Position numbers and translations under genes: made by a program. From assembly GCF_044647545.1 (NCBI RefSeq), contig NZ_CP172818.1: a stretch of DNA of 64,000 nt. One strand, given 5' to 3'. The notes below the pieces were generated by a model, which was given only the letters and a program-made list of their open reading frames with translations, ran no database searches and was not told the origin of the DNA. Origin of the DNA: Escherichia coli (GTDB lineage Bacteria; Pseudomonadota; Gammaproteobacteria; Enterobacterales; Enterobacteriaceae). Shown here in pieces: positions 1-47,516 of this stretch. Every line of letters starts with the position of its first letter. Position 1 is the first letter of the stretch.

Positions 1-243
1 GATAATCACCGGTCCGAGTACGTGGGCCAGAACAGGTGCCAGCGCGGTCATACCAACCATCGCCAGGCCCAGTGCGCCCATCGCCATAAAGCCTTCTTCA
101 AACTGCCCGCCGGATCCTTCGATACTTTTACCGAACTTACCGAGGAAACGAGCAGAACCGCCGAACTGCGACAGGATCCTGTCTACGGCAGCTATCAGCA
201 TAAAGAACATCATGATGTACATGATGATTTCGTTAATTCCCAT
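1..243 (-). CDS. eutH: ethanolamine permease EutH, 5' part only (gene runs off the left edge)
   Basis: Reverse strand from 243 reads ATG GGA ATT AAC... = MGINEIIMYIMMFFMLIAAVD..., a hydrophobic N-terminus; lies directly downstream of eutG in eut operon order. Confidence 0.8.
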   Translation of the reverse strand, partial: MGINEIIMYIMMFFMLIAAVDRILSQFGGSARFLGKFGKSIEGSGGQFEEGFMAMGALGLAMVGMTALAPVLAHVLGPVII

Positions 244-313
244 CGCCTTTACTCCCTGTTAGTTGTTATTTATCCGGCCAACACACCCACGCGGCAAGCG
301 TCGCATCCGGCAT

Positions 314-1501
314 TTATTGCGCCGCTGCGTACAGGCCGACAATCTGCTCCAGGCTGGCGGTACGCGGGTTGCTGCGCAGACAAATATCTTCCAGCGCGGC
401 CTGCGCCCATGCGCCGTAATGCGCAGATGTCGCACCAACATCGCCCAGTCGTTTACCAATCCCAACTTCAGCAATCAGCTCACTTACCGCGTTAATAGCG
501 TCACGATCGTCGGATTTTTTAGTTCGCAGCGCCCGACCAATCTGACTAAACCGATCACGACAAACCATCCGGTTAAATTCCATCACCGTTGGCAACAACA
601 TGGCGTTCGCCAGACCGTGCGGAATATGCAGCGCCGCCCCTGGCTGATGCGCCATCGCGTGGCATAACCCAAGCCCGGCGCTGGAAAACGCCATTCCCGC
701 CATACATGAAGCCAGCAACATGCTCTCGCGCGCGGCAAGGTCATGGCCGTAGCCCACCGCTTTCGGCAGTGATTTGCCAATCATCGCAATGGCACCAATC
801 GCCAGGCTGTCGGTAAACGGTGTAGCGTTCAGCGCGCTGTACGCTTCAATGGCATGGGTTAACGCATCAATGCCAGTCATCGCCGTGACATGCGACGGCA
901 CGCCTTCGGTCAACGCGGCGTCGAGAATCGCCACATCCGGCATCAGCGAGGCATGGGCTAACACCTGCTTGCGCCCGCTCACCGCGTCGATAATCACCGT
1001 TACGTTGGTGGTTTCAGAGCCGGTTCCGGCGGTCGTTGGAATGGCAATCAACGGCAGGCGCGGTTGCAGAACGCTGGTTTCTGACATTTCTGCCAGCGTG
1101 CTATCGGGGTTCGTCACCAGCAACGCCACGGCTTTCGCCGCATCCAGCACCGAGCCGCCGCCAAACGCGATCACCCCGTCACAACCTGATTCACGCAACT
1201 GCGCCACGGCTGCACACACGTCGGTGATGCATGGTTCGCCCACCGGACATGGCCAGAGCGTCATGGCGATACCTTTAACGGCCAGGCTACGCGTCAGCCC
1301 GGCGGTCATCCCTGCCTGATGCAAAAAGCTGTCTGCCATCACGAACAGATGTTTCAACCCACGCGTTTGCGCTTGCTGCCCACAACTGCTCACCGCGCCC
1401 GGACCGCAAAGCGTCACCGGTGGAACGCTAAATGTTTTTACCCGTTGCAGATTCAGGGTATCGAACGCCTGAAAGAGCGCGGTCTGCAATTCATTTTGCA
1501 T
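314..1501 (-). CDS. eutG: iron-containing alcohol dehydrogenase EutG
   Basis: 395-aa ORF, Fe-ADH family features (GGGSVLDAAK), position in eut operon. Confidence 0.93.
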   Translation of the reverse strand: MQNELQTALFQAFDTLNLQRVKTFSVPPVTLCGPGAVSSCGQQAQTRGLKHLFVMADSFLHQAGMTAGLTRSLAVKGIAMTLWPCPVGEPCITDVCAAVAQLRESGCDGVIAFGGGSVLDAAKAVALLVTNPDSTLAEMSETSVLQPRLPLIAIPTTAGTGSETTNVTVIIDAVSGRKQVLAHASLMPDVAILDAALTEGVPSHVTAMTGIDALTHAIEAYSALNATPFTDSLAIGAIAMIGKSLPKAVGYGHDLAARESMLLASCMAGMAFSSAGLGLCHAMAHQPGAALHIPHGLANAMLLPTVMEFNRMVCRDRFSQIGRALRTKKSDDRDAINAVSELIAEVGIGKRLGDVGATSAHYGAWAQAALEDICLRSNPRTASLEQIVGLYAAAQ

Positions 1502-2327
1502 ATAGCCCCTCCGCTTTCTCTCGCCCGCTACTGGCGATCGCCAGCGGGGTCATAAACAAACTGTGCTGCGGTAAATGCACCTGTAACGCCGGGAATTGTT
1601 TGCGAAACAGTTCCGCCACGCCCGGTTGCATACAAGAGCCGCCCGCCAGCCATAAATCAGTAATGCCCTGCCCTTCAATATGCCGGGCGACAATGTCCGC
1701 CATTTTTTCGTACACTGGTTTCACCGCGGGCCAAATCTCTTCACCGTGACCGCGCTTGTACTGCTCTGCCTCTTCCAGCGAAATACGACGATTTCCGGCG
1801 AGAGTCAGAGAGATGTGATGTCCGCCGGTCGCTTCATCCGCCGAGTACGTCACCTTGCCCTTTTTCACGATGGCAATACCAGTAGTGCCACCGCCGATAT
1901 CCACTACACCAGCGTTGTCCAGTTGCAGCAGATCCGCGACTGCGGTTGGCTCATCCAGTACATGGCTCACTTCCAGTCCGGCAGATTCCAGCACGTTGAT
2001 GGAAATACGCGGGTCCGTACCAGGAGGAAATGAGGTCGCCGCATGGCTAAAACGGCGACCGAATTGCTGCTCAAGGGTGTCGAGATGGCGACGAACAATG
2101 GTGACCGCACCGAAGAAATCCCAGACGATGCCGTCGCGGACCACATCGGCCCAGTCGAGGCATACCGCCACCGGCAGACCGTCGCGGTCGACAACCATCG
2201 ACACCACATCGCAAGTGCCCAGATCCACCCCCAGCCACAGCGGAGATTCCGTCGCGGCGGGCGTCTGGTTACACAGCGTTGCCGCCGTTTGCAGACGTGG
2301 GGTGAGCCATTGTTCATCGTGCGCCAT
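1491..2327 (-). CDS. eutJ: ethanolamine utilization chaperone-like protein EutJ (actin/Hsp70 fold)
   Basis: 278-aa ORF, DLGTxxxxxxV and DIGGGTT motifs, overlaps eutG start by 11 nt. Confidence 0.92.
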   Translation of the reverse strand: MAHDEQWLTPRLQTAATLCNQTPAATESPLWLGVDLGTCDVVSMVVDRDGLPVAVCLDWADVVRDGIVWDFFGAVTIVRRHLDTLEQQFGRRFSHAATSFPPGTDPRISINVLESAGLEVSHVLDEPTAVADLLQLDNAGVVDIGGGTTGIAIVKKGKVTYSADEATGGHHISLTLAGNRRISLEEAEQYKRGHGEEIWPAVKPVYEKMADIVARHIEGQGITDLWLAGGSCMQPGVAELFRKQFPALQVHLPQHSLFMTPLAIASSGREKAEGLYAK

Positions 2328-2337
2328 CGGTTACTCC

Positions 2338-3741
2338 TTAAACAATGCGAAACGCATCGACTAATACACAGCGACGCAGACGGACAAACGTCCGCGCGCT
2401 GGTTACCCCTTCACCGGTTGGCGTGGTGATGGTCATCGTGGTCCAGCCTTCCCCGCCCAGCCCCAGCCCGGCAATGCACGGTCCGTTCTTAACGAAAATG
2501 CTGGTATCAATGGCATTCGCCATCTGGTTCATGTTCTCGATATTGCGCGAGTGCATTGCCGCCGTGTGGTGGCAACCGCCTTCCAGTTTCACCGCCAGCG
2601 CAATGGCATCCGCCACGTTGGCGACGCGCACGACGGGCAGCACCGGCATCATCAGTTCAGTCACAGCAAACGGATGTTCTGCGGTGGTTTCTACAAACAG
2701 CAGTCGCGTTTGTTCCGGAACTTTAAGGCCGATTGCCGCCGCGATTTTCGCCGCATCGCGACCAACCCAGTCACGGCTGACGATGCTTTTTCCGCGCTCG
2801 TCGATATTTTTCAGCAACACCGGTTGCAGCTGCTGCGCCTGCTCTGCGGTCAGTTTCACCGCGTGCTGGCCTTCCATCAGACGCATCAGTTCATCGGCTA
2901 CGCTATCCACAACAATCAGTACCTTTTCGTCGGCACAAATGATGTTGTTATCGAAAGACGCGCCTTTGACGATGGACTGAGCAGCACGGGCGAGGTCGGC
3001 GGTTTCATCCACCACTACCGGCGGGTTGCCAGCGCCTGCGGCAATCAGACGTTTATTGGTGTGTTTACGCGCCGCTTCTACTACCGCTTCGCCGCCGGTC
3101 ACCACCAGCAGGCCGATGCCCGGAAACTTGAACAAACGTTGAGCGGTTTCAATATCCGGATTTGCCACAGTAACCAGTAAGTTTTCCGGCCCGCCTGCGG
3201 CAACAATCGCCTGGTTGAGCAGCGTGATCGCCCGCTGGGAGACTTTTTTCGCCGCCGGATGCGGGGCAAAAATGACGCTGTTGCCCGCGGCAATCAGGCT
3301 GATGGCGTTATTAATGACGGTTGCCGCCGGGTTGGTGGACGGAGTTACCGAAGCCACCACGCCCCAGGGCGCGTTTTCAATTAAAGTCAGGCCGTTGTCG
3401 CCAGTCAGCACTTGCGGAGAGAGGCACTCAACGCCTGGTGTGCCGCGCGCCTGAGCGACGTTTTTGGCAAATTTATCTTCAACGCGCCCCATGCCGGTTT
3501 CACTGACGGCAAGTTCCGCTAAATCTCTGGCGTGTTTTTCGCCTGCTTCACGAATGGCAGCAATGGCTAACTGGCGCATTGCCACGCTTTTTAACCCTTG
3601 CTGGGCGACTTTGGCTGCCGCAACGGCGTCATCCAGGGACGCGAAAACGCCCATCTCATGAACGGCGGCGGGCGGCGTGTCACTGCTTTGCATTTTCAGC
3701 AGTACCGCTTTCACCACCTGTTCAATATCCTGTTGATTCAT
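2338..3741 (-). CDS. eutE: CoA-acylating acetaldehyde dehydrogenase EutE
   Basis: 467-aa ORF, aldehyde dehydrogenase family, operon position. Confidence 0.93.
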   Translation of the reverse strand: MNQQDIEQVVKAVLLKMQSSDTPPAAVHEMGVFASLDDAVAAAKVAQQGLKSVAMRQLAIAAIREAGEKHARDLAELAVSETGMGRVEDKFAKNVAQARGTPGVECLSPQVLTGDNGLTLIENAPWGVVASVTPSTNPAATVINNAISLIAAGNSVIFAPHPAAKKVSQRAITLLNQAIVAAGGPENLLVTVANPDIETAQRLFKFPGIGLLVVTGGEAVVEAARKHTNKRLIAAGAGNPPVVVDETADLARAAQSIVKGASFDNNIICADEKVLIVVDSVADELMRLMEGQHAVKLTAEQAQQLQPVLLKNIDERGKSIVSRDWVGRDAAKIAAAIGLKVPEQTRLLFVETTAEHPFAVTELMMPVLPVVRVANVADAIALAVKLEGGCHHTAAMHSRNIENMNQMANAIDTSIFVKNGPCIAGLGLGGEGWTTMTITTPTGEGVTSARTFVRLRRCVLVDAFRIV

Positions 3742-3752
3742 GATGTTCTGCC

Positions 3753-4040
3753 TTATTTGTGGAAAATGACCTGACCGCCAGACACCACCTCATCGACAAT
3801 GCCAATCACGCACAGATCGACCGGTGACGTTTCGCTTTTATGCGCCTGGCGGGCGGAACTGCCACTCACCAGTAACACCCACTCCCCGGTTCCCGCGCCA
3901 ATATTGTCGATGGCGACGGCGCATTGCCCGTCAGGATTACCTTGTGGATCAATCATTTCCACCATCAGCAATTTGTCATGCGCCAGTCCGTGATGGCGTA
4001 CGGTACAAACAATTTGTCCAGTGACGACTGCCAGTTTCAT
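3753..4040 (-). CDS. eutN: microcompartment vertex protein EutN
   Basis: 95-aa ORF, EutN/CcmL family sequence, operon position. Confidence 0.9.
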   Translation of the reverse strand: MKLAVVTGQIVCTVRHHGLAHDKLLMVEMIDPQGNPDGQCAVAIDNIGAGTGEWVLLVSGSSARQAHKSETSPVDLCVIGIVDEVVSGGQVIFHK

Positions 4041-4146
4041 ACCCGCCTCCGTGGCGTATTTCAGGTAAAAGCTCCCCCTACCCTCCGCAGAAGGTAAAAT
4101 GAAAAAGGAGAGAGCGTGACGCCCGAATCGACGTCACACAGGGTGA

Positions 4147-4440
4147 TTACAGGTTGCTGCTATCGCCTTTCAGGCCGATCGGGAAGACTTCTTCCAGGTC
4201 GCCGTGCGGACGCGGGATAACGTGTACAGATACCAGCTCGCCGATACGCTGTGCCGCTGCAGCACCTGCGTCGGTCGCGGCTTTACAGGCTGCAACATCA
4301 CCACGAACCATGGCAGTACACAGGCCGCCGCCAATCTGCTTAACACCAACCAGCTTGACGCGCGCAGCTTTCACCATCGCGTCAGAAGCCTCAATCAGTG
4401 CAACCAGGCCCCGGGTTTCGATCATTCCTAATGCTTCCAT
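4147..4440 (-). CDS. eutM: microcompartment shell protein EutM (BMC domain)
   Basis: Track ORF is 111 aa; the internal ATG at 4440 is preceded by GAGGA and gives the 97-aa BMC protein [11 protein letters not shown]... Confidence 0.88.
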
Positions 4441-4478
4441 TGTGCTTTCCTCTTTATCAGGGTCCAGAACGGGACCGT

Positions 4479-5495
4479 TCATTCAACCAGTGTTTGTAAA
4501 CTGCTTTCGCGGTTCACTTCTGTCTGACGCGGCACAGCTGCCACCAGCGCCAGTTCGATAATTTCCTGCACGCTACAACCACGAGAGAGATCGTGCATCG
4601 GCGCGGCAAGTCCTTGTATCAATGGCCCGACGGCACGATATCCGCCAAGTCGTTGTGCGATTTTGTAGCCAATATTTCCTGCCTCCAGCGACGGAAAAAC
4701 CATCACATTGGCTTTGCCCTGTAACGGGCTGGCTGGCGCTTTTTGCGCCGCCACTTCCGGCACGAAGGCGGCGTCAAACTGCAACTCGCCATCGACAACC
4801 AGCTTTGGTGCGCACTCACGGACGATTTCTGTCGCCTGCTGGACGTTGGCAACGCAGGGGTGACGGGCACTACCGTTGCTGGAAAACGACAGCATCGCCA
4901 CGCGCGGTTCTTCTCCGGTGATGGCGCGCCAGGTTTCGGCGCTGGCAAGCGCGATATCCGCCAGTTGTGCCGCCGTCGGCTGCGGCACCACGCTGCAATC
5001 GGCAAAGCCCAACGCCGGACCGCTGTACTGTGGCAGCATCAGGAAAATGGATGAGAGCGTTTTACAGCCTGGCTGCAAGCCGATAATGCGTAATCCGGCA
5101 CGCAGCACATTCGCCGTGGAAGAGAGGTTGCCCGCGATACAGACATCCGCTTTGCCGGCGCTGACCATTGCGGCGGCGAACATCAGCGGATCGGTAAGTT
5201 TTTCCAGCGCATCCGGCGGCGTTTTTTCGCCCGCGCGGGCCAGCCAGCGATGAGCAAATTCTTCCCGCATTGCGAGGTTGCCATGCGGATCAATCACCTG
5301 TAGCCCGTCCATCGCCACGCCATGACTGAGCGCAAACTGACGAAGTTCAAACGGATTGGCGACCAGAATGGGCGTTGCCAGACCTTGTTGATGTAAATAT
5401 TGCGCAGCTTTCAGCACACGTTGATCTAACGCATCCGGAAAAACTACTCTGGCGGGCGCTCGCAACGCCAGTTCACGACAACGTTTAATAATCAT
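4479..5495 (-). CDS. eutD: phosphotransacetylase EutD
   Basis: 338-aa ORF, Pta family, operon position. Confidence 0.93.
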
Positions 5496-6295
5496 TGCGT
5501 TTCCCCCAGTCGTTGTTGGATCTGCTTCACCGTTAGCGGTTGTTTCGCTACGCTCAGGATCATCATCACGTAGACCGTGCTCGAAAGGCGGTTCAGCGCC
5601 TGCAAAATGTCCGGGCGTAATACTTCAAAGCTGCGGGTGATAAAGACCTGCGCCGCTACGGTTTCGGTTTCCCGCACTTTGGTGCGTAGCAGATTTAGCA
5701 ACGCCGCATCGCGCCCGTGGCTGGCTTCCGGCACCAGATGATCGTGGTCGAGATAACGCAGCGGCTGGTGAGAAAGCCGATGCAGATCTTCGTCAGAAAG
5801 CCCGACAATCGCCTGGCAGGCCAGCGGTTCCCCCAGCGCATCGGCACGCATAATGTTGCCAAGACGCGAACGGATATCCGCCAGCCACGGCTGCCACGGT
5901 TCCGCCAGTTCAATTTGCAGCCACACTGCCAGCGCAATGGTGCTGTCGAGAACCGCGCGAAAAGCCAGGCGCGGATCGCTTTTGGCAACCATTTTTTCCG
6001 CCGACAGGTGAGTCAGCGTATCCGGCTTTTTTGCCACCGGCTGGCGGCACAGTTCGCAGCACGCCTGCGGATGTTCATCGCTACTGGTAAGCCCGTGAAC
6101 GGGCTGCGGCTGCTGCTGTTCATCGTCAACAAACAGGCGGCCCTGCTCGTCAATAAACTTGATGCGCAGATGGCGGCTTTCCAGTAACTCCCGGGCAGAG
6201 GGCGTCAGGCGACTGTCCGCAGGGAGATGGATCTCTGCGCCTTCGCTGAGCGTATGGTTCGCTCTTAGCCATGCTTCGGTGATGAAATCTTTCAT
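5492..6295 (-). CDS. eutT: ethanolamine utilization cobalamin adenosyltransferase EutT
   Basis: 267-aa ORF, 4-nt overlap with eutD start (ATGA coupling). Confidence 0.9.
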
Positions 6296-6993
6296 AGGGA
6301 TTGCCAGTTAGCCGGCCAGGCGACATACAGGAATTTCACGCTGGATGTCGTACCAAATTCGATACTGGAGCCTTTCGGGATAAACATCACATCGCCCGCT
6401 TTGGCGATCATAGTTTCGCCTTCGTGGCGAACATGCAGCTCCCCTTCCAGCACCATGTCGATTTCGTCGTAGTTCAGGGTCCACGGAAAGAAGGCGTTCT
6501 CCCACTGCATAAAACCAGCGGCCATACTGCTGCCGTCGTCTCCGGTCACGAGATCAGTCAAGCCTACGCAGTGCGGTTCCGCGCCATCGAAACGACCAAA
6601 CTTGACGCTGCTGCCATCAATCACTTTGATGCCGCCTTTGCCGGTCACCGATTTGAAACTCGGCTGCATTGCACCCTGCTCCAGTGACTGTTTTTCCTTC
6701 ATCACTTTTTCCATCAGCTGCGCGACCAGGCTTTCGGTAAACTGGCCTTCCGGTAGCTGGGCGATGATGGTTTCGCGGATGCGCTGGCTTTCGGTTTTAT
6801 CGGCTGGCACGCTGGCGGGAACGGACGTCGTTACCGCAGTCGATTCATCACATTCGGTGATGGTAAAACCCAACAGATCAGCCACTTCACGAGCTTCCGG
6901 GGTAATAATGCTGGCGCGCAGAACCACGGACATTGCCAGTTCGCCGCGCGCGTGTGCTTCACGAATATCATTCGCTGTGATGAGTTTTTTCAC
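6292..6993 (-). CDS. eutQ: ethanolamine utilization protein EutQ (cupin)
   Basis: 233-aa ORF, operon position. Confidence 0.9.
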   Translation of the reverse strand: MKKLITANDIREAHARGELAMSVVLRASIITPEAREVADLLGFTITECDESTAVTTSVPASVPADKTESQRIRETIIAQLPEGQFTESLVAQLMEKVMKEKQSLEQGAMQPSFKSVTGKGGIKVIDGSSVKFGRFDGAEPHCVGLTDLVTGDDGSSMAAGFMQWENAFFPWTLNYDEIDMVLEGELHVRHEGETMIAKAGDVMFIPKGSSIEFGTTSSVKFLYVAWPANWQSL

Positions 6994-7447
6994 CTGCTTC
7001 CTCCTGTTTGGTGAGAGATGCCAGATAATCCACCAGTTGCTGCACGCTTTGCGGGTCGTGGCTGTTTAGCTCGAAAATCGGCTCTTCGAAGCCCGTCTCA
7101 AGCAATAACTTTCGCGTTGCGGCGACGTCAGCATCTGGCATGTCCGTTTTACTGATGACGGCGATTTGCCGTTTGCTGACGCCAATATCCAGCAACCCGG
7201 CAGGCAACCGACTTTCCGGGTCATTCGCGCCGTGGACATAGATCAGCATGTCCACATCCTGTAGCGTGGTAATTAAGGCGTGATACCAGCGGGGATGGCT
7301 AAAATATTCACCCGGCGTATCAATATCGCCCTTATCATTAAATTCCACGGCCTGTGTTTTTCTGGCGAGGGTATAATTCCCCTGCAACGCATTAAATAAC
7401 GTTGTTTTTCCTGCCCCGACGGTACCCACAAACGCAATTCGTTTCAT
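6968..7447 (-). CDS. eutP: ethanolamine utilization P-loop protein EutP
   Basis: 159-aa ORF with Walker A GTVGAGKTT; 3' end overlaps eutQ start by 26 nt. Confidence 0.9.
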   Translation of the reverse strand: MKRIAFVGTVGAGKTTLFNALQGNYTLARKTQAVEFNDKGDIDTPGEYFSHPRWYHALITTLQDVDMLIYVHGANDPESRLPAGLLDIGVSKRQIAVISKTDMPDADVAATRKLLLETGFEEPIFELNSHDPQSVQQLVDYLASLTKQEEAGEKTHHSE

Positions 7448-7459
7448 GAATGCCTCGTA

Positions 7460-7795
7460 TTAACTTTTGGTCATTTCACAAAGCGTATAATTTAATAAGC
7501 GTCCTAAACCACTGACGGTTTGTGATAACGCTTCTTCTACTGCGCCCACCGAGCCATAAATCACCAGCGCGCCGCTAAAACGGTCGAGAAAACCGATATG
7601 CACATCGGCGGCTTTCAACGCTAAATCACCGGCGATCATCGCCGTTTCTCCGGGAGTTAGCGTCATAATGCCGATTGCGCCCGCATCCGGAACGCCGATT
7701 TTCTTCGCCAGTTCCTCGCCGGGATGCGCGATGAGATGCGCCAGTGTGACCTGTTTACCGGGCACAAATTCCTGAATGATGCGTTCTTTATCCAT
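7460..7795 (-). CDS. eutS: microcompartment shell protein EutS
   Basis: Track ORF (135 aa) begins at a TTG; the ATG at 7795 gives the 111-aa protein [10 protein letters not shown]... Confidence 0.88.
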
Positions 7796-7958
7796 GAGTC
7801 GCCGCCTGTGAAAAACTTTCGTGTATCGTGACAATTTTTCGTCAGAGTAAATAACAAAATTCGGCAAGCGCGTTTAAAAGGTGAGGTAGATCACTAAGAA
7901 TGGAGAGATATTTTATGTTAAGAAAAAAAACATACATTGTATGAATATAAACGGGAAC

Positions 7959-8699
7959 CAATAAGTTTTGTTTATCATATTATATAGACTTCTTTAATTT
8001 TTAATAATTAGCAGAATACATATTTAATTACTGTTGTATTCTAAAAATATTTATCTTCACCCCATTTAAAATAATCTAGGATTTTATTCAGAAAATAAAA
8101 AAGACCCGAAAAAATCCTTCCCCCCCAAAGGCGCTAATTCATCCATATTAACTCAAGACTTCATAGAAAATTTTCTTAACCCCCATATAGAGCCTCTCTA
8201 AGCCTATTATCCTTTTATTATCAAATCTCTAACCCATCTTTACCTATCTGCAAAAACACACACAAACCACTATTTTATTTTTTTTAAAAACGGAAAAAAG
8301 CATAAGGAAACGAAACAAATGAGAAAAATTTCAAAAAAAAAGAAAAATAGAAAAAAAATAATAAAAAAAACGAAAGCGAATACGAAAGGAAGAAAAAAAA
8401 AAACAAAAAATTTCAAATTCCCCAACCCACAGCCACAAAGCAAAACGAACAAACCTGAGGAACTTAAAGAAAAAGAGTATATGAAACTTAAACTAACACC
8501 TAGCTAACTATAGTAACCGAAGAAAGAACACAAAAAAGAAACAAAAATACAAAAAAAAACTAAACAAAAAAAAAAGAAAATCATAAAATTTTTATCTCAA
8601 CATAAAAAAAAAATTGAACAAAAAAAAAATGACCCCAAAAAAAACACCCCAAAAAACAACAAAAGGAACACAACAAAACAAACAAAAAACACCCCAACA
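7959..8699. other. anomalous non-coding low-complexity block: left part AT-rich, right part (about 8281-8699) strongly A-rich/C-containing on + strand; putative foreign or artefactual insertion
   Basis: Hand tally of 8521-8700: A about 68%, C 19%, T 8%, G 4%; A-runs of 9-11 nt; only poly-Lys/poly-Phe pseudo-ORFs; eutS-maeB spacer is 978 bp here. Boundaries approximate. Confidence 0.6.
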
Positions 8700-8728
8700 C
8701 CACAGGAAGGGAGAGGAATCAGCTAAAC

Positions 8729-8756
8729 CGCTTACCCTGAATATTCAGGGTAAGCG
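8729..8756 (-). terminator. perfect 13-bp inverted repeat just downstream of maeB stop (candidate maeB terminator hairpin; weak U-tract)
   Basis: cgcttaccctgaa / ttcagggtaagcg, 17 nt from the maeB stop codon. Confidence 0.4.
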
Positions 8757-8773
8757 TGAGAGTTAAAAAAGAA

Positions 8774-25646: not shown

Positions 25647-25653
25647 GCTAAGG

Positions 25654-33656: not shown

Positions 33657-33672
33657 CGTGATCAAGATCACA
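33657..33672. promoter_or_regulatory. CRP/FNR-class palindrome upstream of hyf promoter
   Basis: cGTGATCaagaTCACA: perfect GTGA-N6-TCAC core, 14-bp perfect inverted repeat gtgatcaagatcac. Confidence 0.4.
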
Positions 33673-33797
33673 TTCTCGCTTTCCCCTGCGACACGGGTGT
33701 CGAATCCATTTATTGCTGAACGTTAATGACCATCATTTTTGTACCGTTCAGAATCCAGTTAACACATAAATTATTGAATATATTAAATTAATCAGAC

Positions 33798-33814
33798 TGG
33801 CATCCTTTATGCAA
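33798..33814 (+). promoter_or_regulatory. sigma54 (-24/-12) promoter of the hyf operon
   Basis: TGGCATC-N4-ATGCA with GG and GC 12 nt apart; about 40 bp upstream of hyfA ATG, which has an AAGGAG SD. Confidence 0.6.
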
Positions 33815-33854
33815 TATGAAATGCAATGTTTCATATCATTTTCAAGGAGCCGAC

Positions 33855-34472
33855 ATGAACCGCTTTGTGGTGGCCGAACCACTGTGGTGTACAGGATGTA
33901 ATACCTGTCTCGCTGCCTGTTCGGACGTGCATAAAACGCAAGGTTTACAGCAACACCCGCGCCTGGCCCTGGCGAAGACGTCAACACTCACTGCCCCTGT
34001 CGTGTGTCATCACTGTGAGGAAGCCCCTTGCCTGCAGGTCTGCCCGGTCAATGCCATCTCCCAGAGGGACGATGCGATCCAACTCAACGAAAGCCTCTGT
34101 ATTGGCTGCAAGCTTTGCGCCGTGGTCTGCCCATTTGGCGCAATCAGCGCTTCAGGAAGCCGTCCGGTGAATGCCCCTGCGCAATATGTTTTTCAGGCTG
34201 AGGGCTCACTCAAAGACGGCGAAGAAAACGCGCCAACCCAACATGCTTTGCTGCGCTGGGAACCGGGTGTCCAGACCGTCGCGGTGAAATGCGACCTGTG
34301 TGATTTCTTGCCAGAAGGTCCGGCCTGCGTTCGCGCTTGTCCGAATCAGGCGTTACGGCTGATCACCGACGATAGCCTGCAACGTCAGATGAAAGAAAAA
34401 CAGCGCCTTGCCGCAAGCTGGTTTGCCAATGGCGGGGAGGATCCCCTTTCCCTCACTCAGGAGCAACGCTAA
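33855..34472 (+). CDS. hyfA: hydrogenase-4 ferredoxin-type subunit HyfA
   Basis: ATG at 33855 gives 205 aa MNRFVVAEPLWCTGCNTC...; four Cys clusters. Confidence 0.9.
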   Translation: MNRFVVAEPLWCTGCNTCLAACSDVHKTQGLQQHPRLALAKTSTLTAPVVCHHCEEAPCLQVCPVNAISQRDDAIQLNESLCIGCKLCAVVCPFGAISASGSRPVNAPAQYVFQAEGSLKDGEENAPTQHALLRWEPGVQTVAVKCDLCDFLPEGPACVRACPNQALRLITDDSLQRQMKEKQRLAASWFANGGEDPLSLTQEQR

Positions 34473-36490
34473 TGGATGCCCTGCAATTATTAACCTGGTC
34501 GCTGATCCTCTATCTGTTTGCCAGTCTGGCTTCGCTATTTTTACTCGGTCTGGACAGACTGGCTATTAAGCTTTCCGGCATCACATCGCTGGTGGGCGGC
34601 GTGATTGGCATCATCAGCGGAATTACGCAATTACATGCAGGCGTAACTTTAGCCGCCCGTTTTGCCACACCTTTTGAATTTGCCGATTTAACCCTGCGAA
34701 TGGATAGCCTCTCGGCATTTATGGTGCTGGTTATCTCCTTGCTGGTGGTGGTTTGTTCGCTCTATTCATTGACTTATATGCGCGAATACGAGGGTAAAGG
34801 CGCGGCGGCGATGGGCTTCTTTATGAATCTTTTCATCGCATCGATGGTTGCCCTGCTGGTGATGGACAACGCTTTTTGGTTCATCGTGCTGTTTGAAATG
34901 ATGTCGCTGTCTTCCTGGTTTCTGGTCATTGCCAGGCAGGATAAAACGTCGATCAACGCTGGCATGCTCTACTTTTTTATCGCCCACGCCGGATCGGTGC
35001 TGATTATGATCGCCTTCTTGCTGATGGGGCGCGAAAGCGGCAGCCTCGATTTTGCCAGTTTCCGCACGCTTTCACTTTCTCCGGGGCTGGCGTCGGCGGT
35101 GTTCCTGCTGGCCTTTTTCGGTTTTGGCGCGAAAGCCGGGATGATGCCGTTGCACAGCTGGTTGCCGCGCGCTCACCCTGCCGCACCATCGCACGCTTCG
35201 GCGTTGATGTCTGGCGTAATGGTCAAAATCGGTATTTTCGGCATCCTTAAAGTAGCGATGGATCTGCTGGCGCAAACGGATTTGCCGCTGTGGTGGGGCA
35301 TTCTGGTGATGGCGATCGGCGCAATCTCCGCGCTCCTGGGCGTGCTATATGCGCTGGCGGAACAGGATATCAAACGGCTGCTGGCCTGGAGTACCGTCGA
35401 AAACGTCGGCATTATTTTGCTGGCGGTCGGTGTGGCGATGGTCGGTCTGTCACTGCACGACCCGCTGCTCACCGTTGTTGGACTGCTCGGCGCGCTGTTT
35501 CATCTGCTCAACCATGCGCTGTTCAAAGGGCTGCTGTTTCTCGGCGCGGGCGCAATTATTTCGCGTTTGCATACCCACGACATGGAAAAAATGGGGGCAC
35601 TGGCGAAACGGATGCCGTGGACAGCCGCAGCATGCCTGATTGGTTGCCTCGCGATATCAGCCATTCCTCCGCTGAATGGTTTTATCAGCGAATGGTACAC
35701 CTGGCAGTCGCTGTTCTCACTAAGTCGTGTGGAAGCCGTAGCGCTACAACTTGCGGGTCCTATTGCTATGGTGATGCTGGCAGTCACTGGTGGGCTGGCA
35801 GTAATGTGCTTCGTCAAAATGTACGGCATTACTTTCTGTGGTGCGCCGCGCAGTACACACGCTGAAGAGGCACAGGACGTGCCAAATACGATGATCGTCG
35901 CCATGCTACTGCTCGCGGCACTCTGCGTATTCATTGCGCTTAGTGCCAGTTGGCTGGCACCGAAGATAATGCACATTGCCCATGCGTTTACCAATACCCC
36001 TCCCGTCACTGTCGCCAGCGGAATAGCACTTGTACCCGGCACGTTTCATACACGGGTCACTCCCTCATTACTGTTGCTGTTACTACTGGCGATGCCTTTG
36101 CTGCCTGGCCTTTACTGGCTGTGGTGTCGTTCGCGCCGCGCAGCGTTTCGTCGCACAGGAGATGCCTGGGCATGCGGCTACGGCTGGGATAATGCGATGG
36201 CCCCGTCAGGCAATGGCGTGATGCAGCCGCTGCGTGTGGTCTTTTGTGCGCTATTTCGTCTACGACAACAGCTCGACCCTACGCTGAGGCTGAACAAAGG
36301 TCTTGCGCACGTCACCGCCAGGGCTCAGAGCACAGAACCCTTCTGGGATGAGCGGGTGATCCGCCCCATCGTGAGCGCCACCCAACGGCTGGCCAAAGAA
36401 ATACAGCATCTGCAAAGCGGCGACTTTCGTCTCTATTGCCTGTATGTGGTCGCCGCACTGGTTGTGCTGCTAATCGCTATTGCCGTCTAA
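34472..36490 (+). CDS. hyfB: hydrogenase-4 membrane subunit HyfB (NuoL/Mrp antiporter-like)
   Basis: 672-aa polytopic membrane ORF. Confidence 0.93.
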   Translation: MDALQLLTWSLILYLFASLASLFLLGLDRLAIKLSGITSLVGGVIGIISGITQLHAGVTLAARFATPFEFADLTLRMDSLSAFMVLVISLLVVVCSLYSLTYMREYEGKGAAAMGFFMNLFIASMVALLVMDNAFWFIVLFEMMSLSSWFLVIARQDKTSINAGMLYFFIAHAGSVLIMIAFLLMGRESGSLDFASFRTLSLSPGLASAVFLLAFFGFGAKAGMMPLHSWLPRAHPAAPSHASALMSGVMVKIGIFGILKVAMDLLAQTDLPLWWGILVMAIGAISALLGVLYALAEQDIKRLLAWSTVENVGIILLAVGVAMVGLSLHDPLLTVVGLLGALFHLLNHALFKGLLFLGAGAIISRLHTHDMEKMGALAKRMPWTAAACLIGCLAISAIPPLNGFISEWYTWQSLFSLSRVEAVALQLAGPIAMVMLAVTGGLAVMCFVKMYGITFCGAPRSTHAEEAQDVPNTMIVAMLLLAALCVFIALSASWLAPKIMHIAHAFTNTPPVTVASGIALVPGTFHTRVTPSLLLLLLLAMPLLPGLYWLWCRSRRAAFRRTGDAWACGYGWDNAMAPSGNGVMQPLRVVFCALFRLRQQLDPTLRLNKGLAHVTARAQSTEPFWDERVIRPIVSATQRLAKEIQHLQSGDFRLYCLYVVAALVVLLIAIAV

Positions 36491-36500
36491 GGAAATCACC

Positions 36501-37448
36501 ATGAGACAAACTCTTTGCGACGGATATCTGATCATTTTTGCGTTAGCACAGGCCGTGATTCTGCTGGCGCTAACCCCGCTTTTTACGGGGATTTCCCGGC
36601 AGATACGCGCGCGTATGCACTCCCGTCGCGGACCGGGGATCTGGCAGGATTATCGCGATATCCACAAACTGTTTAAACGCCAGGAAGTTGCGCCGACATC
36701 TTCAGGTCTGATGTTCCGCCTGATGCCGTGGGTATTAATCAGCAGCATGCTGGTGCTGGCGATGGCCCTACCACTATTTATTACTGTTTCCCCTTTTGCG
36801 GGCGGCGGCGATCTGATCACCCTTATCTATCTTCTTGCCCTATTTCGTTTTTTCTTTGCTCTTTCCGGGCTGGATACCGGAAGCCCCTTTGCGGGAATCG
36901 GTGCCAGTCGCGAGTTAACGCTCGGCATTCTGGTCGAACCCATGCTCATTCTCTCACTGCTGGTATTGGCGCTGATAGCGGATTCCACGCATATCGAGAT
37001 GATCAGCAAGACGCTGGCGACGGGCTGGAACTCGCCGCTAACCACCGTACTGGCGTTACTGGCCTGTGGTTTTGCCTGCTTCATTGAGATGGGAAAAATT
37101 CCCTTTGATGTTGCTGAAGCAGAACAGGAATTACAGGAAGGCCCGCTGACCGAATATTCCGGTGCCGGGCTGGCGCTGGCGAAGTTGGGGCTGGGGCTGA
37201 AACAGGTCGTGATGGCATCACTGTTTGTGGCCCTGTTTCTGCCCTTTGGGCGCGCGCAAGAGCTTTCTCTCACCTGCCTGCTGACTTCACTTGTCGTTAC
37301 GCTGCTCAAGGTTTTGCTGATTTTTGTTCTGGCCTCTATCGCAGAAAACACGCTGGCACGCGGGCGATTTTTACTCATTCACCATGTGACCTGGCTTGGC
37401 TTCAGCCTTGCTGCGCTTGCCTGGGTCTTCTGGTTAACCGGTCTGTAA
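36501..37448 (+). CDS. hyfC: hydrogenase-4 membrane subunit HyfC (NuoH-like)
   Basis: ATG at 36501 gives 315 aa MRQTLCDGYLIIF... Confidence 0.9.
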   Translation: MRQTLCDGYLIIFALAQAVILLALTPLFTGISRQIRARMHSRRGPGIWQDYRDIHKLFKRQEVAPTSSGLMFRLMPWVLISSMLVLAMALPLFITVSPFAGGGDLITLIYLLALFRFFFALSGLDTGSPFAGIGASRELTLGILVEPMLILSLLVLALIADSTHIEMISKTLATGWNSPLTTVLALLACGFACFIEMGKIPFDVAEAEQELQEGPLTEYSGAGLALAKLGLGLKQVVMASLFVALFLPFGRAQELSLTCLLTSLVVTLLKVLLIFVLASIAENTLARGRFLLIHHVTWLGFSLAALAWVFWLTGL

Positions 37449-37464
37449 GGAGCACTAACGGAAT

Positions 37465-38904
37465 ATGGAAAATCTTGCTCTGACGACGTTATTGCTGCCT
37501 TTTATCGGCGCACTGGTCGTTTCGTTTTCGCCACAACGTCGGGCCGCCGAATGGGGGGTTTTGTTCGCCGCGCTGACCACGCTGTGCATGTTGTCACTGA
37601 TCTCCGCGTTTTATCAGGCCGATAAAGTTGCCGTCACGTTGACGTTGGTCAACGTGGGGGATGTGGCGTTGTTTGGCCTGGTCATTGATCGCGTGAGTAC
37701 GCTGATTCTGTTTGTGGTGGTGTTCCTCGGTTTGCTGGTCACGATCTACTCCACGGGTTATCTGACGGATAAAAATCGCGAACACCTGCATAACGGCACG
37801 AATCGTTATTACGCATTTTTGCTGGTTTTTATCGGCGCGATGGCGGGACTGGTACTCTCCTCGACGCTGCTCGGTCAGTTGTTGTTTTTTGAAATTACGG
37901 GCGGCTGCTCCTGGGCGTTGATCAGTTATTACCAGAGCGATAAAGCGCAGCGTTCAGCACTAAAAGCGTTACTTATCACTCATATCGGTTCGCTGGGGTT
38001 GTATCTTGCCGCCGCCACGCTGTTTTTGCAGACCGGAACGTTTGCGCTTAGCGCGATGAGCGAGTTACACGGCGACGCACGTTATCTGGTTTATGGCGGC
38101 ATCCTGTTTGCCGCGTGGGGGAAATCGGCCCAGCTACCGATGCAAGCGTGGCTACCGGATGCAATGGAAGCGCCAACACCGATCAGCGCCTATCTCCACG
38201 CCGCATCGATGGTGAAAGTGGGCGTTTACATTTTTGCCCGTGCCATTATCGACGGCGGCAATATCCCGCATGTGATTGGCGGCGTTGGCATGGTTATGGC
38301 ACTGGTCACCATTCTTTACGGCTTCCTGATGTATTTGCCACAGCAGGATATGAAGCGGTTGCTGGCCTGGTCGACCATCACTCAACTTGGCTGGATGTTT
38401 TTCGGCTTGTCGCTCTCCATCTTCGGCTCGCGGCTGGCGCTGGAGGGCAGCATCGCCTACATCGTCAACCACGCGTTCGCTAAAAGCCTATTTTTCCTTG
38501 TAGCAGGTGCGCTGAGTTACAGCTGCGGCACGCGCTTGTTGCCGCGTCTGCGTGGCGTATTGCACACCCTGCCGTTGCCAGGCGTGGGTTTCTGCGTAGC
38601 CGCGCTGGCGATTACTGGCGTACCGCCGTTCAACGGCTTCTTCAGTAAATTCCCGCTGTTTGCCGCCGGTTTTTCGTTGTCAGTGGAGTACTGGATCCTG
38701 CTGCCCGCCATGATTCTGCTGATGTTTGAATCGGTCGCCAGTTTCGCCTGGTTTATTCGCTGGTTTGGTCGCGTCGTGCCTGGCAAACCGAGCGAGGCCG
38801 TCGCCGATGCCGCACCGCTGCCAGGATCAATGCGCCTGGTGTTGATTGTACTGATTGTGATGTCGCTGATTTCCAGCGTAATCGCCGCGACCTGGTTGCA
38901 GTAA
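37465..38904 (+). CDS. hyfD: hydrogenase-4 membrane subunit HyfD (antiporter-like)
   Basis: 479-aa polytopic membrane ORF. Confidence 0.93.
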   Translation: MENLALTTLLLPFIGALVVSFSPQRRAAEWGVLFAALTTLCMLSLISAFYQADKVAVTLTLVNVGDVALFGLVIDRVSTLILFVVVFLGLLVTIYSTGYLTDKNREHLHNGTNRYYAFLLVFIGAMAGLVLSSTLLGQLLFFEITGGCSWALISYYQSDKAQRSALKALLITHIGSLGLYLAAATLFLQTGTFALSAMSELHGDARYLVYGGILFAAWGKSAQLPMQAWLPDAMEAPTPISAYLHAASMVKVGVYIFARAIIDGGNIPHVIGGVGMVMALVTILYGFLMYLPQQDMKRLLAWSTITQLGWMFFGLSLSIFGSRLALEGSIAYIVNHAFAKSLFFLVAGALSYSCGTRLLPRLRGVLHTLPLPGVGFCVAALAITGVPPFNGFFSKFPLFAAGFSLSVEYWILLPAMILLMFESVASFAWFIRWFGRVVPGKPSEAVADAAPLPGSMRLVLIVLIVMSLISSVIAATWLQ

Positions 38905-38915
38905 GGAGATGATGA

Positions 38916-39566
38916 ATGACCGGTTCTATGATCGTAAATAATCTGGCGGGACTGATGATGCTGACATCGCTGTTTGTGATTAGCGTCAAAAGCTATCGCC
39001 TGTCATGCGGATTTTACGCCTGCCAGTCGCTGGTGCTGGTGTCTATTTTCGCCACCCTCTCGTGCCTGTTCGTCGCAGAGCAACTGCTGATCTGGTCCGC
39101 CAGCGCCTTTATCACCAAAGTGCTGCTGGTACCGTTAATCATGATTTACGCTGCACGAAATATTCCCCAGAACATCCCGGAAAAAGCGTTATTCGGTCCG
39201 GCTATGATGGCATTGCTCGCGGCATTAATTGTCCTGCTTTGCGCATTTGTCGTTCAGCCCGTGAAGCTACCGATGGCTACCGGGCTGAAACCGGCGCTGG
39301 CGGTGGCGTTAGGTCATTTTCTGCTTGGCCTGCTGTGCATTGTCAGCCAGCGCAATATCCTGCGGCAAATTTTTGGTTACTGCCTGATGGAAAACGGCTC
39401 CCATCTGGTGCTGGCGCTTCTTGCCTGGCGTGCACCGGAACTGGTGGAAATTGGTATCGCTACCGACGCCATCTTCGCCGTCATTGTGATGGTGTTACTG
39501 GCAAGAAAAATATGGCGTACCCACGGCACGCTGGACGTGAACAACTTGACCGCGCTGAAGGGATAA
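38916..39566 (+). CDS. hyfE: hydrogenase-4 membrane subunit HyfE
   Basis: 216-aa membrane ORF. Confidence 0.92.
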
Positions 39567-39570
39567 TGAG

Positions 39571-41151
39571 ATGAGTTATTCTGTGATGTTCGCTTTACTC
39601 CTGCTCACGCCGCTGCTTTTTTCGCTGCTCTGTTTTGCCTGCCGGAAATGGGGACACTCTGCGACTCGCACGGTGACAGTACTACATAGCTTAGGGATCA
39701 CACTGCTGCTGATTCTGACACTGTGGGTGGTCCAAACTGCCGCTGATGCGGGAGAAATATTCGCTGCGGGACTGTGGCTTCATATTGATGGTCTGGGCGG
39801 TTTGTTCCTCGCCATTCTTGGTGTGATTGGCTTTCTCACCGGTGTTTACTCGATTGGCTACATGCGTCATGAAGTGGCACACGGCGAGCTTTCACCCGTT
39901 ACGCTGTGCGATTACTACGGTTTCTTCCATCTGTTTTTGTTCACCATGCTGCTGGTTGTTACCAGCAATAACCTGATTGTGATGTGGGCGGCGATCGAAG
40001 CCACCACCTTAAGCTCGGCGTTTCTGGTAGGCATTTACGGTCAGCGTTCATCGCTGGAAGCTGCATGGAAGTACATCATTATTTGTACTGTTGGTGTCGC
40101 TTTTGGTCTGTTCGGTACCGTGCTGGTATACGCCAACGCCGCCAGCGTTATGCCGCAGGCAGAAATGGCGATATTCTGGAGCGAGGTTCTTAAGCAATCG
40201 TCCTTGCTTGACCCAACATTAATGCTGTTGGCCTTTGTGTTTGTGCTAATTGGCTTTGGCACCAAAACCGGGCTATTCCCCATGCACGCCTGGCTGCCAG
40301 ATGCTCACAGTGAAGCGCCGAGTCCGGTCAGCGCCCTGCTCTCCGCCGTATTGCTGAACTGCGCGCTATTGGTGCTGATTCGCTATTACATCATTATTTG
40401 CCAGGCCATCGGCAGCGATTTCCCCAACCGGTTGTTGCTCATCTTCGGCATGTTGTCGGTTGCCGTGGCGGCATTTTTCATTCTGGTACAGCGGGACATT
40501 AAGCGTCTGCTGGCGTACTCCAGCGTGGAGAACATGGGACTGGTCGCGGTGGCGTTAGGCATTGGCGGGCCGCTGGGAATTTTTGCCGCGCTGCTGCACA
40601 CCTTAAACCACAGTCTGGCAAAAACGCTGCTGTTCTGCGGTTCCGGCAATGTACTGCTCAAGTACGGCACGCGCGATCTCAACGTCGTCTGCGGAATGCT
40701 CAAAATCATGCCATTTACCGCCGTGCTGTTTGGCGGCGGTGCGCTGGCGCTGGCCGGGATGCCGCCCTTCAACATTTTTCTTAGCGAATTTATGACCGTT
40801 ACCGCCGGACTGGCGCGTAATCACCTGCTGATTATCGTCCTGCTGTTATTGCTGTTAACGCTGGTGCTGGCGGGCCTGGTACGGATGGCTGCGCGGGTGT
40901 TAATGGCGAAACCGCCGCAGGCCGTTAACCGGGGTGAACTTGGCTGGTTGACCACCTCGCCAATGGTGATTCTGCTGGTCATGATGCTGGCGATGGGAAC
41001 GCATATTCCACAACCTGTCATCAGGATCCTGGCGGGCGCTTCCACTATAGTCCTCTCAGGGACGCACGACCTGCCTGCACAACGTAGCACCTGGCATGAT
41101 TTTTTGCCTTCAGGCACCGCATCTGTTTCGGAGAAACACAGTGAACGTTAA
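39571..41151 (+). CDS. hyfF: hydrogenase-4 membrane subunit HyfF (antiporter-like)
   Basis: 526-aa polytopic membrane ORF. Confidence 0.93.
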
Positions 41152-42856
41152 TTCATCGTCAAATCGTGGCGAAGCGATTCTCGCCGCCCTGAAAACGCAG
41201 TTCCCCGGCGCGGTGCTGGATGAAGAGCGACAAACGCCTGAACAGGTCACCATTACGGTGAAAATCAATCTGCTGCCTGACGTTGTGCATTATCTTTATT
41301 ATCAACATGATGGCTGGCTTCCGGTCCTGTTTGGCAACGACGAGCGGACACTTAACGGTCATTACGCGGTTTATTATGCCCTTTCTATGGAAGGGGCCGA
41401 AAAATGCTGGATCGTGGTGAAGGCACTGGTCGATGCCGACAGTCGGGAGTTTCCGTCAGTCACACCGCGCGTCCCTGCCGCGGTCTGGGGCGAGCGAGAA
41501 ATTCGCGATATGTACGGGTTGATTCCGGTTGGCCAGCCGGATCAGCGTCGGCTGGTGTTGCCCGATGACTGGCCGGAAGATATGCATCCGCTGCGCAAAG
41601 ACGCGATGGATTATCGACTGCGCCCAGAACCGACGACTGATACCGAAACGTATCCGTTTATCAACGAGGGCAACAGCGATGCGCGGGTGATCCCTGTCGG
41701 CCCGCTGCATATCACCTCCGATGAACCAGGTCACTTCCGCTTGTTTGTGGATGGCGAGCAAATTGTCGATGCTGATTACCGCCTGTTTTATGTCCATCGC
41801 GGCATGGAGAAACTGGCAGAAACGCGGATGGGCTACAACGAAGTGACCTTCTTATCCGACCGCGTGTGTGGGATTTGCGGTTTTGCCCACAGTGTGGCCT
41901 ATACCAACTCGGTTGAAAATGCACTGGGGATTGAGGTGCCGCAACGAGCGCATACTATTCGCTCGATTCTGCTGGAAGTCGAACGGCTGCATAGTCATTT
42001 GCTCAACCTTGGCCTCTCCTGCCATTTTGTTGGTTTTGATACCGGCTTTATGCAATTTTTCCGCGTGCGGGAAAAGTCGATGACGATGGCGGAATTGCTG
42101 ACCGGGTCGCGTAAAACCTACGGTCTGAATCTGATTGGTGGTGTTCGCCGCGATATTCTCAAAGAGCAACGTCTGCAAACGCTGAAACTGGTGCGCGAGA
42201 TGCGCGCCGACGTGTCGGAGCTGGTAGAGATGTTGCTTGCCACGCCGAATATGGAACAACGCACTCAGGGCATTGGCATTCTCGACCGACAAATCGCCCG
42301 TGATTATAGCCCCGTAGGGCCGCTGATCCGCGGCAGTGGCTTTGCCCGTGATTTGCGCTTTGATCACCCCTACGCCGACTACGGCAATATTCCCAAAACG
42401 CTGTTTACCTTTACCGGCGGCGATGTCTTCTCCCGCGTGATGGTCCGTGTCAAAGAGACGTTTGATTCGCTGGCAATGCTGGAATTTGCCCTCGACAACA
42501 TGCCAGATACCCCACTGCTGACCGAAGGCTTTAGCTATAAACCTCACGCATTCGCGCTGGGCTTTGTTGAAGCGCCACGTGGTGAAGACGTGCACTGGAG
42601 CATGCTCGGTGATAACCAAAAATTGTTCCGCTGGCGCTGTCGTGCCGCCACCTACGCCAACTGGCCAGTGCTGCGTTACATGCTGCGCGGCAATACCGTT
42701 TCTGACGCACCGCTGATTATCGGTAGCCTTGATCCCTGTTACTCCTGTACCGACCGTGTGACGCTGGTTGATGTGCGCAAGCGCCAGTCAAAAACCGTGC
42801 CGTATAAAGAGATCGAACGCTACGGCATTGATCGTAACCGTTCGCCGCTGAAGTAA
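41141..42856 (+). CDS. hyfG: hydrogenase-4 [NiFe] large subunit HyfG
   Basis: N-terminal [11 protein letters not shown] and C-terminal DPCYSCTDR Ni-Fe ligand motifs; start placed at GTG 41141 ([13 protein letters not shown]...), exact start uncertain. Confidence 0.85.
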
Positions 42857-42865
42857 GGACAGAAA

Positions 42866-43411
42866 ATGCTGAAGTTACTGAAAACTATTATGCGCGCCGG
42901 AACCGCGACGGTGAAATATCCCTTCGCGCCACTGGAGGTCAGCCCAGGCTTTCGCGGGAAACCGGACCTGATGCCCAGCCAATGTATTGCCTGCGGTGCC
43001 TGCGCCTGTGCTTGTCCGGCAAATGCGCTGACTATCCAGACCGACGACCAACAAAATACGCGCACCTGGCAGCTCTATCTGGGGCGTTGTATTTACTGCG
43101 GACGTTGTGAAGAAGTGTGCCCGACCAGAGCCATTCAGCTTACCAATAACTTTGAACTGACCGTCACCAATAAAGCCGATCTCTATACCCGCGCGACGTT
43201 TCATCTACAACGTTGCAGTCGTTGCGAACGCCCATTTGCCCCGCAAAAAACCGTCGCACTGGCTGCAGAACTGTTGGCACAGCAACAAAATGCGCCACAA
43301 AACCGCGAAATGTTGTGGGCGCAAGCGAGCATCTGCCCGGAATGCAAACAACGCGCGACGCTGATCAACGACGATACAGATGTACCGCTGGTGGCTAAGG
43401 AGCAGCTATGA
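42866..43411 (+). CDS. hyfH: hydrogenase-4 2x[4Fe-4S] ferredoxin subunit HyfH
   Basis: 181-aa ORF with [12 protein letters not shown] and [12 protein letters not shown]. Confidence 0.93.
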
Positions 43412-44166
43412 GTCCAGTGCTTACGCAACATGTCAGCCAGCCCATAACGCTGGACGAGCAAACGCAAAAGATGAAGCAGCATTTGCTACAGGATATCCGT
43501 CGCTCGGCTTACGTTTATCGCGTCGATTGCGGCGGCTGCAACGCCTGCGAAATCGAAATTTTTGCCGCCATCACACCCGTATTCGACGCAGAACGTTTTG
43601 GCATTAAGGTTGTTTCATCACCGCGTCACGCCGATATTTTGTTATTTACTGGCGCAGTCACCCGGGCGATGCGTATGCCTGCACTTCGGGCATATGAGTC
43701 TGCCCCCGATCATAAAATCTGTGTTTCCTACGGCGCGTGCGGTGTCGGCGGCGGTATTTTCCACGATCTTTACAGCGTCTGGGGCGGCAGCGACACCATT
43801 GTCCCCATTGATGTTTGGATCCCCGGCTGCCCGCCAACACCGGCCGCCACCATTCACGGTTTCGCCGTGGCGCTCGGTTTGCTGCAACAGAAGATTCACG
43901 CGGTGGATTATCGCGATCCCACCGGGGTGACCATGCAACCGCTGTGGCCGCAGATCCCGCCATCACAGCGTATCGCCATTGAGCGAGAAGCGAGGCGGCT
44001 GGCGGGCTATCGTCAAGGGCGAGAAATTTGCGATCGGCTCCTGCGCCATTTAAGCGACGATCCTACAGGAAATCGGGTTAACACCTGGTTGCGCGAAGCT
44101 GACGATCCACGTCTCAATAGTATCGTTCAGCAACTCTTTCGCGTTCTCCGGGGGTTACATGGCTGA
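43408..44166 (+). CDS. hyfI: hydrogenase-4 small subunit HyfI (NuoB-like)
   Basis: 252-aa [13 protein letters not shown] and GCPP motifs; 4-nt overlap with hyfH. Confidence 0.93.
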
Positions 44167-44572
44167 GGAGTGCAGGGAAATTGTTTTCTGGACGCTGCGA
44201 AAAAAATTTATCGCCAGTAGCGACGAGATGCCGGAACACAGCTCCCAGGTAATGTATTACTCGTTGGCTATCGGTCATCACGTTGGCGTGATTGATTGTT
44301 TGAATGTCGCCTTCCGCTGCCCACAGACGGAATACGAAGATTGGCTTGCACAGGTCGAAGAGGAGCAAGCCCGACGTAAGATGCTGGGGGTGATGACTTT
44401 TGGTGAGATTGTTATTGACGCCAGCCACACCGCCCTGTTGACCCGGGCATTCGCGCCACTGGCAGATGACGCGACGTCGGCGTGGCAGGCGCGTAGCATT
44501 CAATTCATTCATCTGTTGGATGAAATTGTGCAGGAACCGGTCATCTATCTGATGGCCAGAAAAATTGCGTGA
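44159..44572 (+). CDS. hyfJ: hydrogenase-4 accessory protein HyfJ (HycH-like)
   Basis: 137-aa ORF, 8-nt overlap with hyfI. Confidence 0.9.
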
Positions 44573-44601
44573 GAAGGATTTCTCATTAATAAGGACTGTT
44601 G

Positions 44602-46614: not shown

Positions 46615-46635
46615 TCTGTTTTTGCAGGAGTATGC

Positions 46636-47484: not shown

Positions 47485-47516
47485 AAATCAGCCCGGCGAA
47501 ACAGTTCGTCGGGCTG
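47484..47516. terminator. bidirectional stem-loop terminator between focB and perM
   Basis: agcccggcg ...loop... cgtcgggct (9-bp stem, one G-T); T5 follows on the minus strand. Confidence 0.5.

Follow-up and report, generated by a model that had tools for sequence, protein, structure and literature searches.

A low-complexity block between eutS and maeB in an Escherichia coli assembly reads as an ST648-lineage island that has lost about two thirds of its letters

The spacer between eutS and maeB in the stretch of Escherichia coli DNA analyzed here (64,000 nucleotides, hereafter the window) contains a block unlike anything else in it, and this raises the question of where the block came from and whether it is chromosomal DNA at all. 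Both bordering genes are intact: eutS (7460-7795, − strand), the leading gene of the eut operon, is 100 % identical to the annotated eutS of strains MS6198 and 104, and maeB (8774-11053, − strand) is a 759-aa open reading frame annotated as maeB in every matched genome. By the coordinates of these reading frames the spacer runs from 7796 to 8773 and measures 978 bp, the length given by the first-pass annotation; the anomalous stretch within it is 7981-8717, 737 nt.

The unusual character of the block was borne out by every measure applied. The first-pass annotation had described 8521-8700 as A-rich and strand-asymmetric from a hand count, which is matched by the computed composition (A 68.3, C 18.9, T 8.3, G 4.4 %); over 8281-8699 the values are A 63, C 16.5, T 11.5, and G 9.1 %, and the skew of the block reaches extremes of +0.74 for AT and −0.55 for GC. 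The A-runs and C-runs that had been remarked upon are present: the C-runs measure 4-7 nt, and there are nine A-runs of 8-11 nt, against five (the longest of 8 nt) in the 63 kb outside the block. Nothing comparable was thought to occur elsewhere in the window, and when all 64 kb were scanned, the 14 windows of 150 nt with the lowest entropy did indeed all fall within 8226-8750. The block was also rightly judged to hold no credible reading frame, RNA gene, terminal inverted repeat or recombinase: its listed open reading frames reach at most 62 aa and are all of low complexity; an Rfam scan of 7700-8900 returned no RNA family for the block, its single, chance-level match (E 0.55) lying within maeB; and a search of the block for hallmarks of mobile elements yielded neither a recombinase nor terminal repeats nor a target duplication, the repeat pairs being of the chance, A/T-rich kind only. 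Perfect inverted repeats were likewise absent from the block region except for the maeB terminator hairpin (8729-8756), which is a perfect palindrome of 14+14 nt.

Given a collection of 5426 complete E. coli genomes, the question of whether this spacer is native to the species could be addressed directly. The common eutS-maeB spacer is 292 bp long, in K-12 MG1655, in strain 104 and in most of the complete genomes, so the first-pass figure of only a few hundred base pairs for the K-12 spacer was correct. It lies between the same genes and shares with the window about 120 bp beside eutS and the maeB terminator; it lacks the sequence in between, the window leaving the common allele at 7916 and rejoining it at about 8703, and the window spacer is thereby 686 bp longer. 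Alignment to K-12 and the other genomes shows that the 978-bp spacer is not native in this form: none of the 5426 covers at least 80 % of window positions 7400-9400, a region that usually spans 1315 bp, as against 2001 bp here, and coverage of the block does not exceed 14 % in any of them, by way of a shared left edge. To this extent the first-pass annotation was right: the block departs from ordinary host sequence and is missing from typical E. coli.

The flanks of the block point to a particular lineage. They are 100.0 % identical to those of dozens of E. coli of the ST648 lineage, among them MS6198, ECONIH1 and strain ST648. In blastn alignments with MS6198 the identity is 100 % over window positions 1-273, 99.9 % over 289-7998 and 99.998 %, with one 1-nt indel, over 8718-64000. 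Strain 104, a member of phylogroup B2, appeared as the closest relative in a first search with 2 kb (99.7 %), but over the window it reaches only 96-99 % and was set aside. Outside the corrupted stretches the window differs from MS6198 at only about three places, and the source assembly is therefore not noisy overall.

In the ST648 lineage the eutS-maeB site carries an island-type spacer of 2399 bp (about 2.4 kb) with two extra genes on the + strand. The first of these encodes WP_022645959.1, annotated as a glycosyltransferase and of GT4 type by NCBIfam, with 356 aa when intact; the second encodes WP_224053104.1 (322 aa when intact), annotated as a [quoted passage not shown] The latter gene, at positions 9933-10901 of the MS6198 segment L005 and thus under window positions of about 8560-8717, carries the Pfam domain GINT1_N (PF24793, E 5e-35) and falls in no NCBIfam family; the domain is named for a eukaryotic sphingolipid glycosyltransferase. 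The composition of the island is even (A 27, C 23, G 23, T 27 %). Of the 5426 complete genomes, 91 have the island, at a single chromosomal site, and 84 of these carry it nearly whole (at least 80 % of its length at no less than 99 % identity), with the GT4 gene paired with the GINT1_N gene. Six genomes, including NZ_OZ546925.1 and NZ_OZ547117.1, have a diverged island of about 89 % identity that matches over the first 58 % only, that is, the GT4 gene, and in NZ_OW967003.1 an IS1 has inserted into the island. Because this diverged variant and the IS1-disrupted copy are also found, the site has at least three natural alleles. We found no description of the island in the literature.

In MS6198 the part of the island that corresponds to the block is NZ_CP015834.1 2779735-2781892, 2158 nt, in place of which the window has 737 nt. 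The window shares with MS6198 the site, the left edge (7916-7980) and everything from 8718 onward; it differs in that both reading frames and the start codon of the first gene are destroyed, and a search of the window for intact GT4 and GINT1_N reading frames, as a functional copy of the island would have, found neither. On alignment, the block is island sequence of the ST648 lineage from which some two thirds of the letters are gone: it keeps 34 % of the island bases (737/2158), among which A now makes up 53 % and G 8 %.

The relation is that of a subsequence to its source, and we examined it in two ways. Tiles of 40 nt from the block were each assigned the shortest island interval that holds them as an exact subsequence, with 100 shuffles per tile as the control. 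The tiles are colinear and contiguous, those of 7981-8260 falling at L005 8727-9150 and those of 8421-8580 at L005 9685-10018; none of 100 shuffles was as compact for nine of the 11 tiles, and one and three of 100 were for the other two. The second measure was the longest common subsequence (LCS) with the island, for which shuffled zones and random genomic pieces served as null models. It amounts to 79 of 80 positions for 8021-8100 (shuffled 57.5 ± 1.8, random genomic 48.4 ± 2.8), 160 of 160 for 8101-8260 (122.1 ± 2.4 and 119.7 ± 3.2, respectively) and again 160 of 160 for 8421-8580 (140.0 ± 2.0 and 125.7 ± 7.6). Across these informative zones (8021-8260 and 8421-8580) 399 of 400 bases form a colinear subsequence, with at most one substitution and no insertion, and the embedding lies 10-16 SD above the shuffles. 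A base-level alignment of 8080-8270 with 291 nt of the island tells the same story at higher resolution, with 190 matches, one mismatch and no insertion; the fraction of each base retained there is 0.91 for A, 0.82 for C, 0.66 for T and 0.19 for G. These comparisons show the derivation of the block from the island and its deletions-only character, together with the base bias of the loss, the identity of the flanks and the intact state of the island in all the closest genomes.

The damage is unevenly spread along the + strand. At the left, 7916-7980 is the intact edge of the island-type allele, identical to MS6198 and departing from the common spacer in the alignments with strain 104 and CFSAN061771. 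It is followed by a lightly corrupted part of the non-coding island leader (7981-8100, corresponding to L005 8735-8897), in which some 67-85 % of the bases are kept; its tiles embed at L005 8727, 8804 and 8848, with 0 of 100 shuffles as good. Each zone shows 0-1 substitutions and 0-1 insertions, with the exception of the very beginning of this one, where 7981-7997 has two substitutions and one extra base relative to MS6198; the left edge is therefore not perfectly deletions-only. The next zone, 8101-8260, corresponds to L005 8898-9150, in the 5′ part of the GT4 glycosyltransferase gene, and lacks 37 % of the bases; it is the first of the two zones that are exact subsequences over their whole length; retention is 0.92 for A, 0.81 for C, 0.65 for T and 0.17 for G, and the ATG start codon of the glycosyltransferase has been cut to a lone A.

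The middle of the glycosyltransferase gene is heavily collapsed in 8261-8420, which lies between L005 9151 and 9684 and keeps about 30 % of the bases, mostly A. The signal of this zone on its own is weak (LCS 159 against 154.5 ± 1.5 for shuffled sequence), and its position is set by the colinear anchors on both sides. The anchor to the right, 8421-8580, covers the 3′ part of the glycosyltransferase gene and the start of the GINT1_N gene (L005 9685-10018) at 48 % retention; it is the other exact subsequence, its four consecutive tiles are colinear, and A is retained at 0.94, C at 0.41, T at 0.21 and G at 0.22. The most collapsed part, 8581-8717, stands in place of the GINT1_N gene (L005 10019-10892, 874 nt), of which about 16 % would be kept, with gaps of up to 90 nt. 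The LCS test is powerless here, every shuffle embedding as well, and it is its position between the anchor ending at 8580 and the exact match beginning at 8718 that points to derivation of this zone from the island. The remaining 8718-8773, which closes the island and the spacer and includes the maeB terminator, is intact and matches MS6198 at 100 %.

In total about 1400 bases are lost, singly or in short runs, in some 240 separate small gaps across 2.2 kb, and overall G and T have been kept least. A is the best-retained base in all four zones from 8101 on, and in 7961-8100 T is retained at least as well as A. The A-runs, the C-runs and the strand asymmetry follow from this pattern, because the loss of G and T from a balanced island merges the A's and C's that remain. 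A model in which each base is deleted independently reproduces the longest A-run (11) and was nevertheless rejected, as it yields 3.3 ± 1.5 A-runs of at least 8 nt where nine are observed; the loss is therefore bursty, or the process may have added some A's.

A second corrupted spot lies in the eutH-eutG spacer, where 15 nt (274-288, + strand; CCGGCCAACACACCC, with no T and two G) stand opposite a 61-nt REP-like palindromic element in MS6198. They are compatible with a subsequence relation, which here is statistically uninformative. The site is naturally variable, strain 104 having 161 nt there and K-12 an extra REP copy. Elsewhere, the sole base substitution outside the corrupted stretches is at 2787, inside the eut operon (T here, C in MS6198), and the only other indel relative to MS6198 in 55 kb is a missing T at 25653, beside the REP-like GGGCCGGATAAG; either a minor consensus error or a genuine 1-nt variant is the probable explanation. 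Two further features concern the hyf region. In hyfG (1716 nt in MS6198, 1668 nt in K-12) the window has 48 nt more than K-12, inserted in frame at about 42302-42349; since MS6198 has this insertion as well, it is a real lineage variant. The hyf operon with hyfR and focB (33657-47512, 13.8 kb) is found in K-12 and is absent from the B2 strain 104; its presence or absence is ordinary polymorphism between phylogroups.

How could a sequence lose two of three bases and keep the remainder in order and nearly free of substitutions? The first-pass annotation proposed an insertion of roughly 740 bp, for which it named foreign DNA of possibly eukaryotic or synthetic origin, a chimeric assembly and a spacer placed on purpose as the likeliest explanations. 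An insertion it is not: measured against its own lineage (2399-bp spacer) the window comes out 1421 bp shorter, and a gain, of 686 bp, appears only against the common allele. The suspicion of an assembly problem was well placed; a chimera of two sources does not fit, the block having one source from which bases were dropped. A foreign, eukaryote-derived or synthetic spacer placed between eutS and maeB would account for a composition unlike that of E. coli and for the absence of the block from typical E. coli spacers, but it does not explain why an E. coli island that the closest genomes carry at this position contains the block, in order, as an exact subsequence; unrelated DNA would not embed 10-16 SD above shuffles. 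In blastn with the block alone, window positions 7997-8102 only gave matches, and these are to the E. coli island at the same site in the 91 genomes; a distant blastn search of plasmid and phage collections found no match to 7950-8710. Together with the lack of recombinase, terminal repeats and target duplication, this brings the probability of a foreign insert, in our estimation, close to nil.

The closest relatives, then, are intact at the site and essentially identical in the flanks, and the block differs from them by hundreds of small, base-biased deletions and almost no substitutions. The exact block has no counterpart among the 5426 complete E. coli genomes; a search of the GTDB species-representative genomes for a 63-nt exact stretch of it was negative, as was one for five of its ORFs in a collection of 15 billion proteins. 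No mutational, repair or recombination process known to us gives such single-base, A-sparing loss, and because some 240 base-biased deletions in 2.2 kb stand beside about 63 kb of near-identical flanks, it is very probable, judging from this pattern, that the block is a corrupted, deletions-only image of the island and not physical DNA. Local collapsed or deletion-rich consensus errors occur in long-read assembly and polishing. The block is like them in being a short damaged stretch in a near-perfect assembly, with correct bases, missing columns and a base bias; it differs in scale, the loss of two thirds of 2.2 kb being unusual. The most likely cause would be a consensus or polishing step that drops columns. 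Such a step in the source assembly would have picked “gap” over “base” column by column, either where many reads had a gap or where read support was poor; working by column, it would leave base identities correct and lose columns only. Near the decision threshold a slight base-dependent difference in support could be turned into a strongly base-biased loss, and changes in local support could give rise to zones of 85 %, 63 %, 30 %, 48 % and 16 % retention. Two of the three discrepancies from MS6198 outside the island adjoin or replace REP-like hairpin elements, a position of small errors that fits technical trouble. A later fault in data handling, or deliberate corruption, may also have produced the block; the resulting sequence would look no different from that left by a consensus fault.

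Several more specific technical routes were considered and put aside. A consensus guided by K-12 that mangled insertions is contradicted by the 48-nt insertion in hyfG and an 8-nt insertion, both specific to MS6198 relative to K-12 and both rendered faithfully in the window. That the common 292-bp allele was mixed in is unlikely, as the sequence is purely of island type over 7916-7980, the stretch in which the difference between the two alleles is plainest. Raw-read noise, such as one poor long read bridging a gap, is disfavored as well: poor long reads carry substitutions and insertions besides deletions, and the informative zones are virtually free of both.

Could the block nevertheless be real DNA, a decayed remnant of the island in a single strain? 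The sequence does run on into perfect flanks on both sides, and the island is accessory and open to disruption, as the IS1 copy in NZ_OW967003.1 illustrates. However, mutational decay yields substitutions and a few larger deletions, whereas here about 1400 bases are gone in about 240 small gaps with scarcely any substitutions, next to 63 kb of flanks with about three differences; nor is there any intermediate among the 91 island genomes, in which the island is either at least 99 % identical or the distinct variant of about 89 %. We consider such decay very unlikely. A mixed origin, in which part of the island is truly deleted (most of the second gene, say, under 8581-8717) and the rest of the block is an artefact, draws on the fall of retention to 16 % in that zone, where the gaps are estimated at up to 90 nt, and on the consideration that, if only some of the cells had the deletion, a consensus step would have met many gaps. 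Yet the A/C-rich garble is continuous to 8718 with no clean deletion junction, and no complete genome (91 with the island among 5426) has such a deletion, and we give this combination an equally small chance. More improbable still, though short of the near-nil estimate for a foreign insert, is that the block is physically real as the product of a template-dependent, skipping mode of copying that rewrote the island in place, dropping G and T, keeping A and leaving the flanks untouched. If that were true it would imply an unknown DNA-rewriting process; nothing here supports one.

Taken as a corrupted image of the island, the block is primarily a matter of quality control: what looked like a striking “non-host” element beside the eut promoter would be the garbled record of two ordinary accessory genes. 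An annotation of the record as it stands would miss the glycosyltransferase and the GINT1_N gene, and would suggest a false non-coding insert of 0.7 kb in their place. In practical terms, when a low-complexity block lies between flanks shared unchanged with close relatives, the first check should be whether it is a subsequence of the relatives' sequence at that site.
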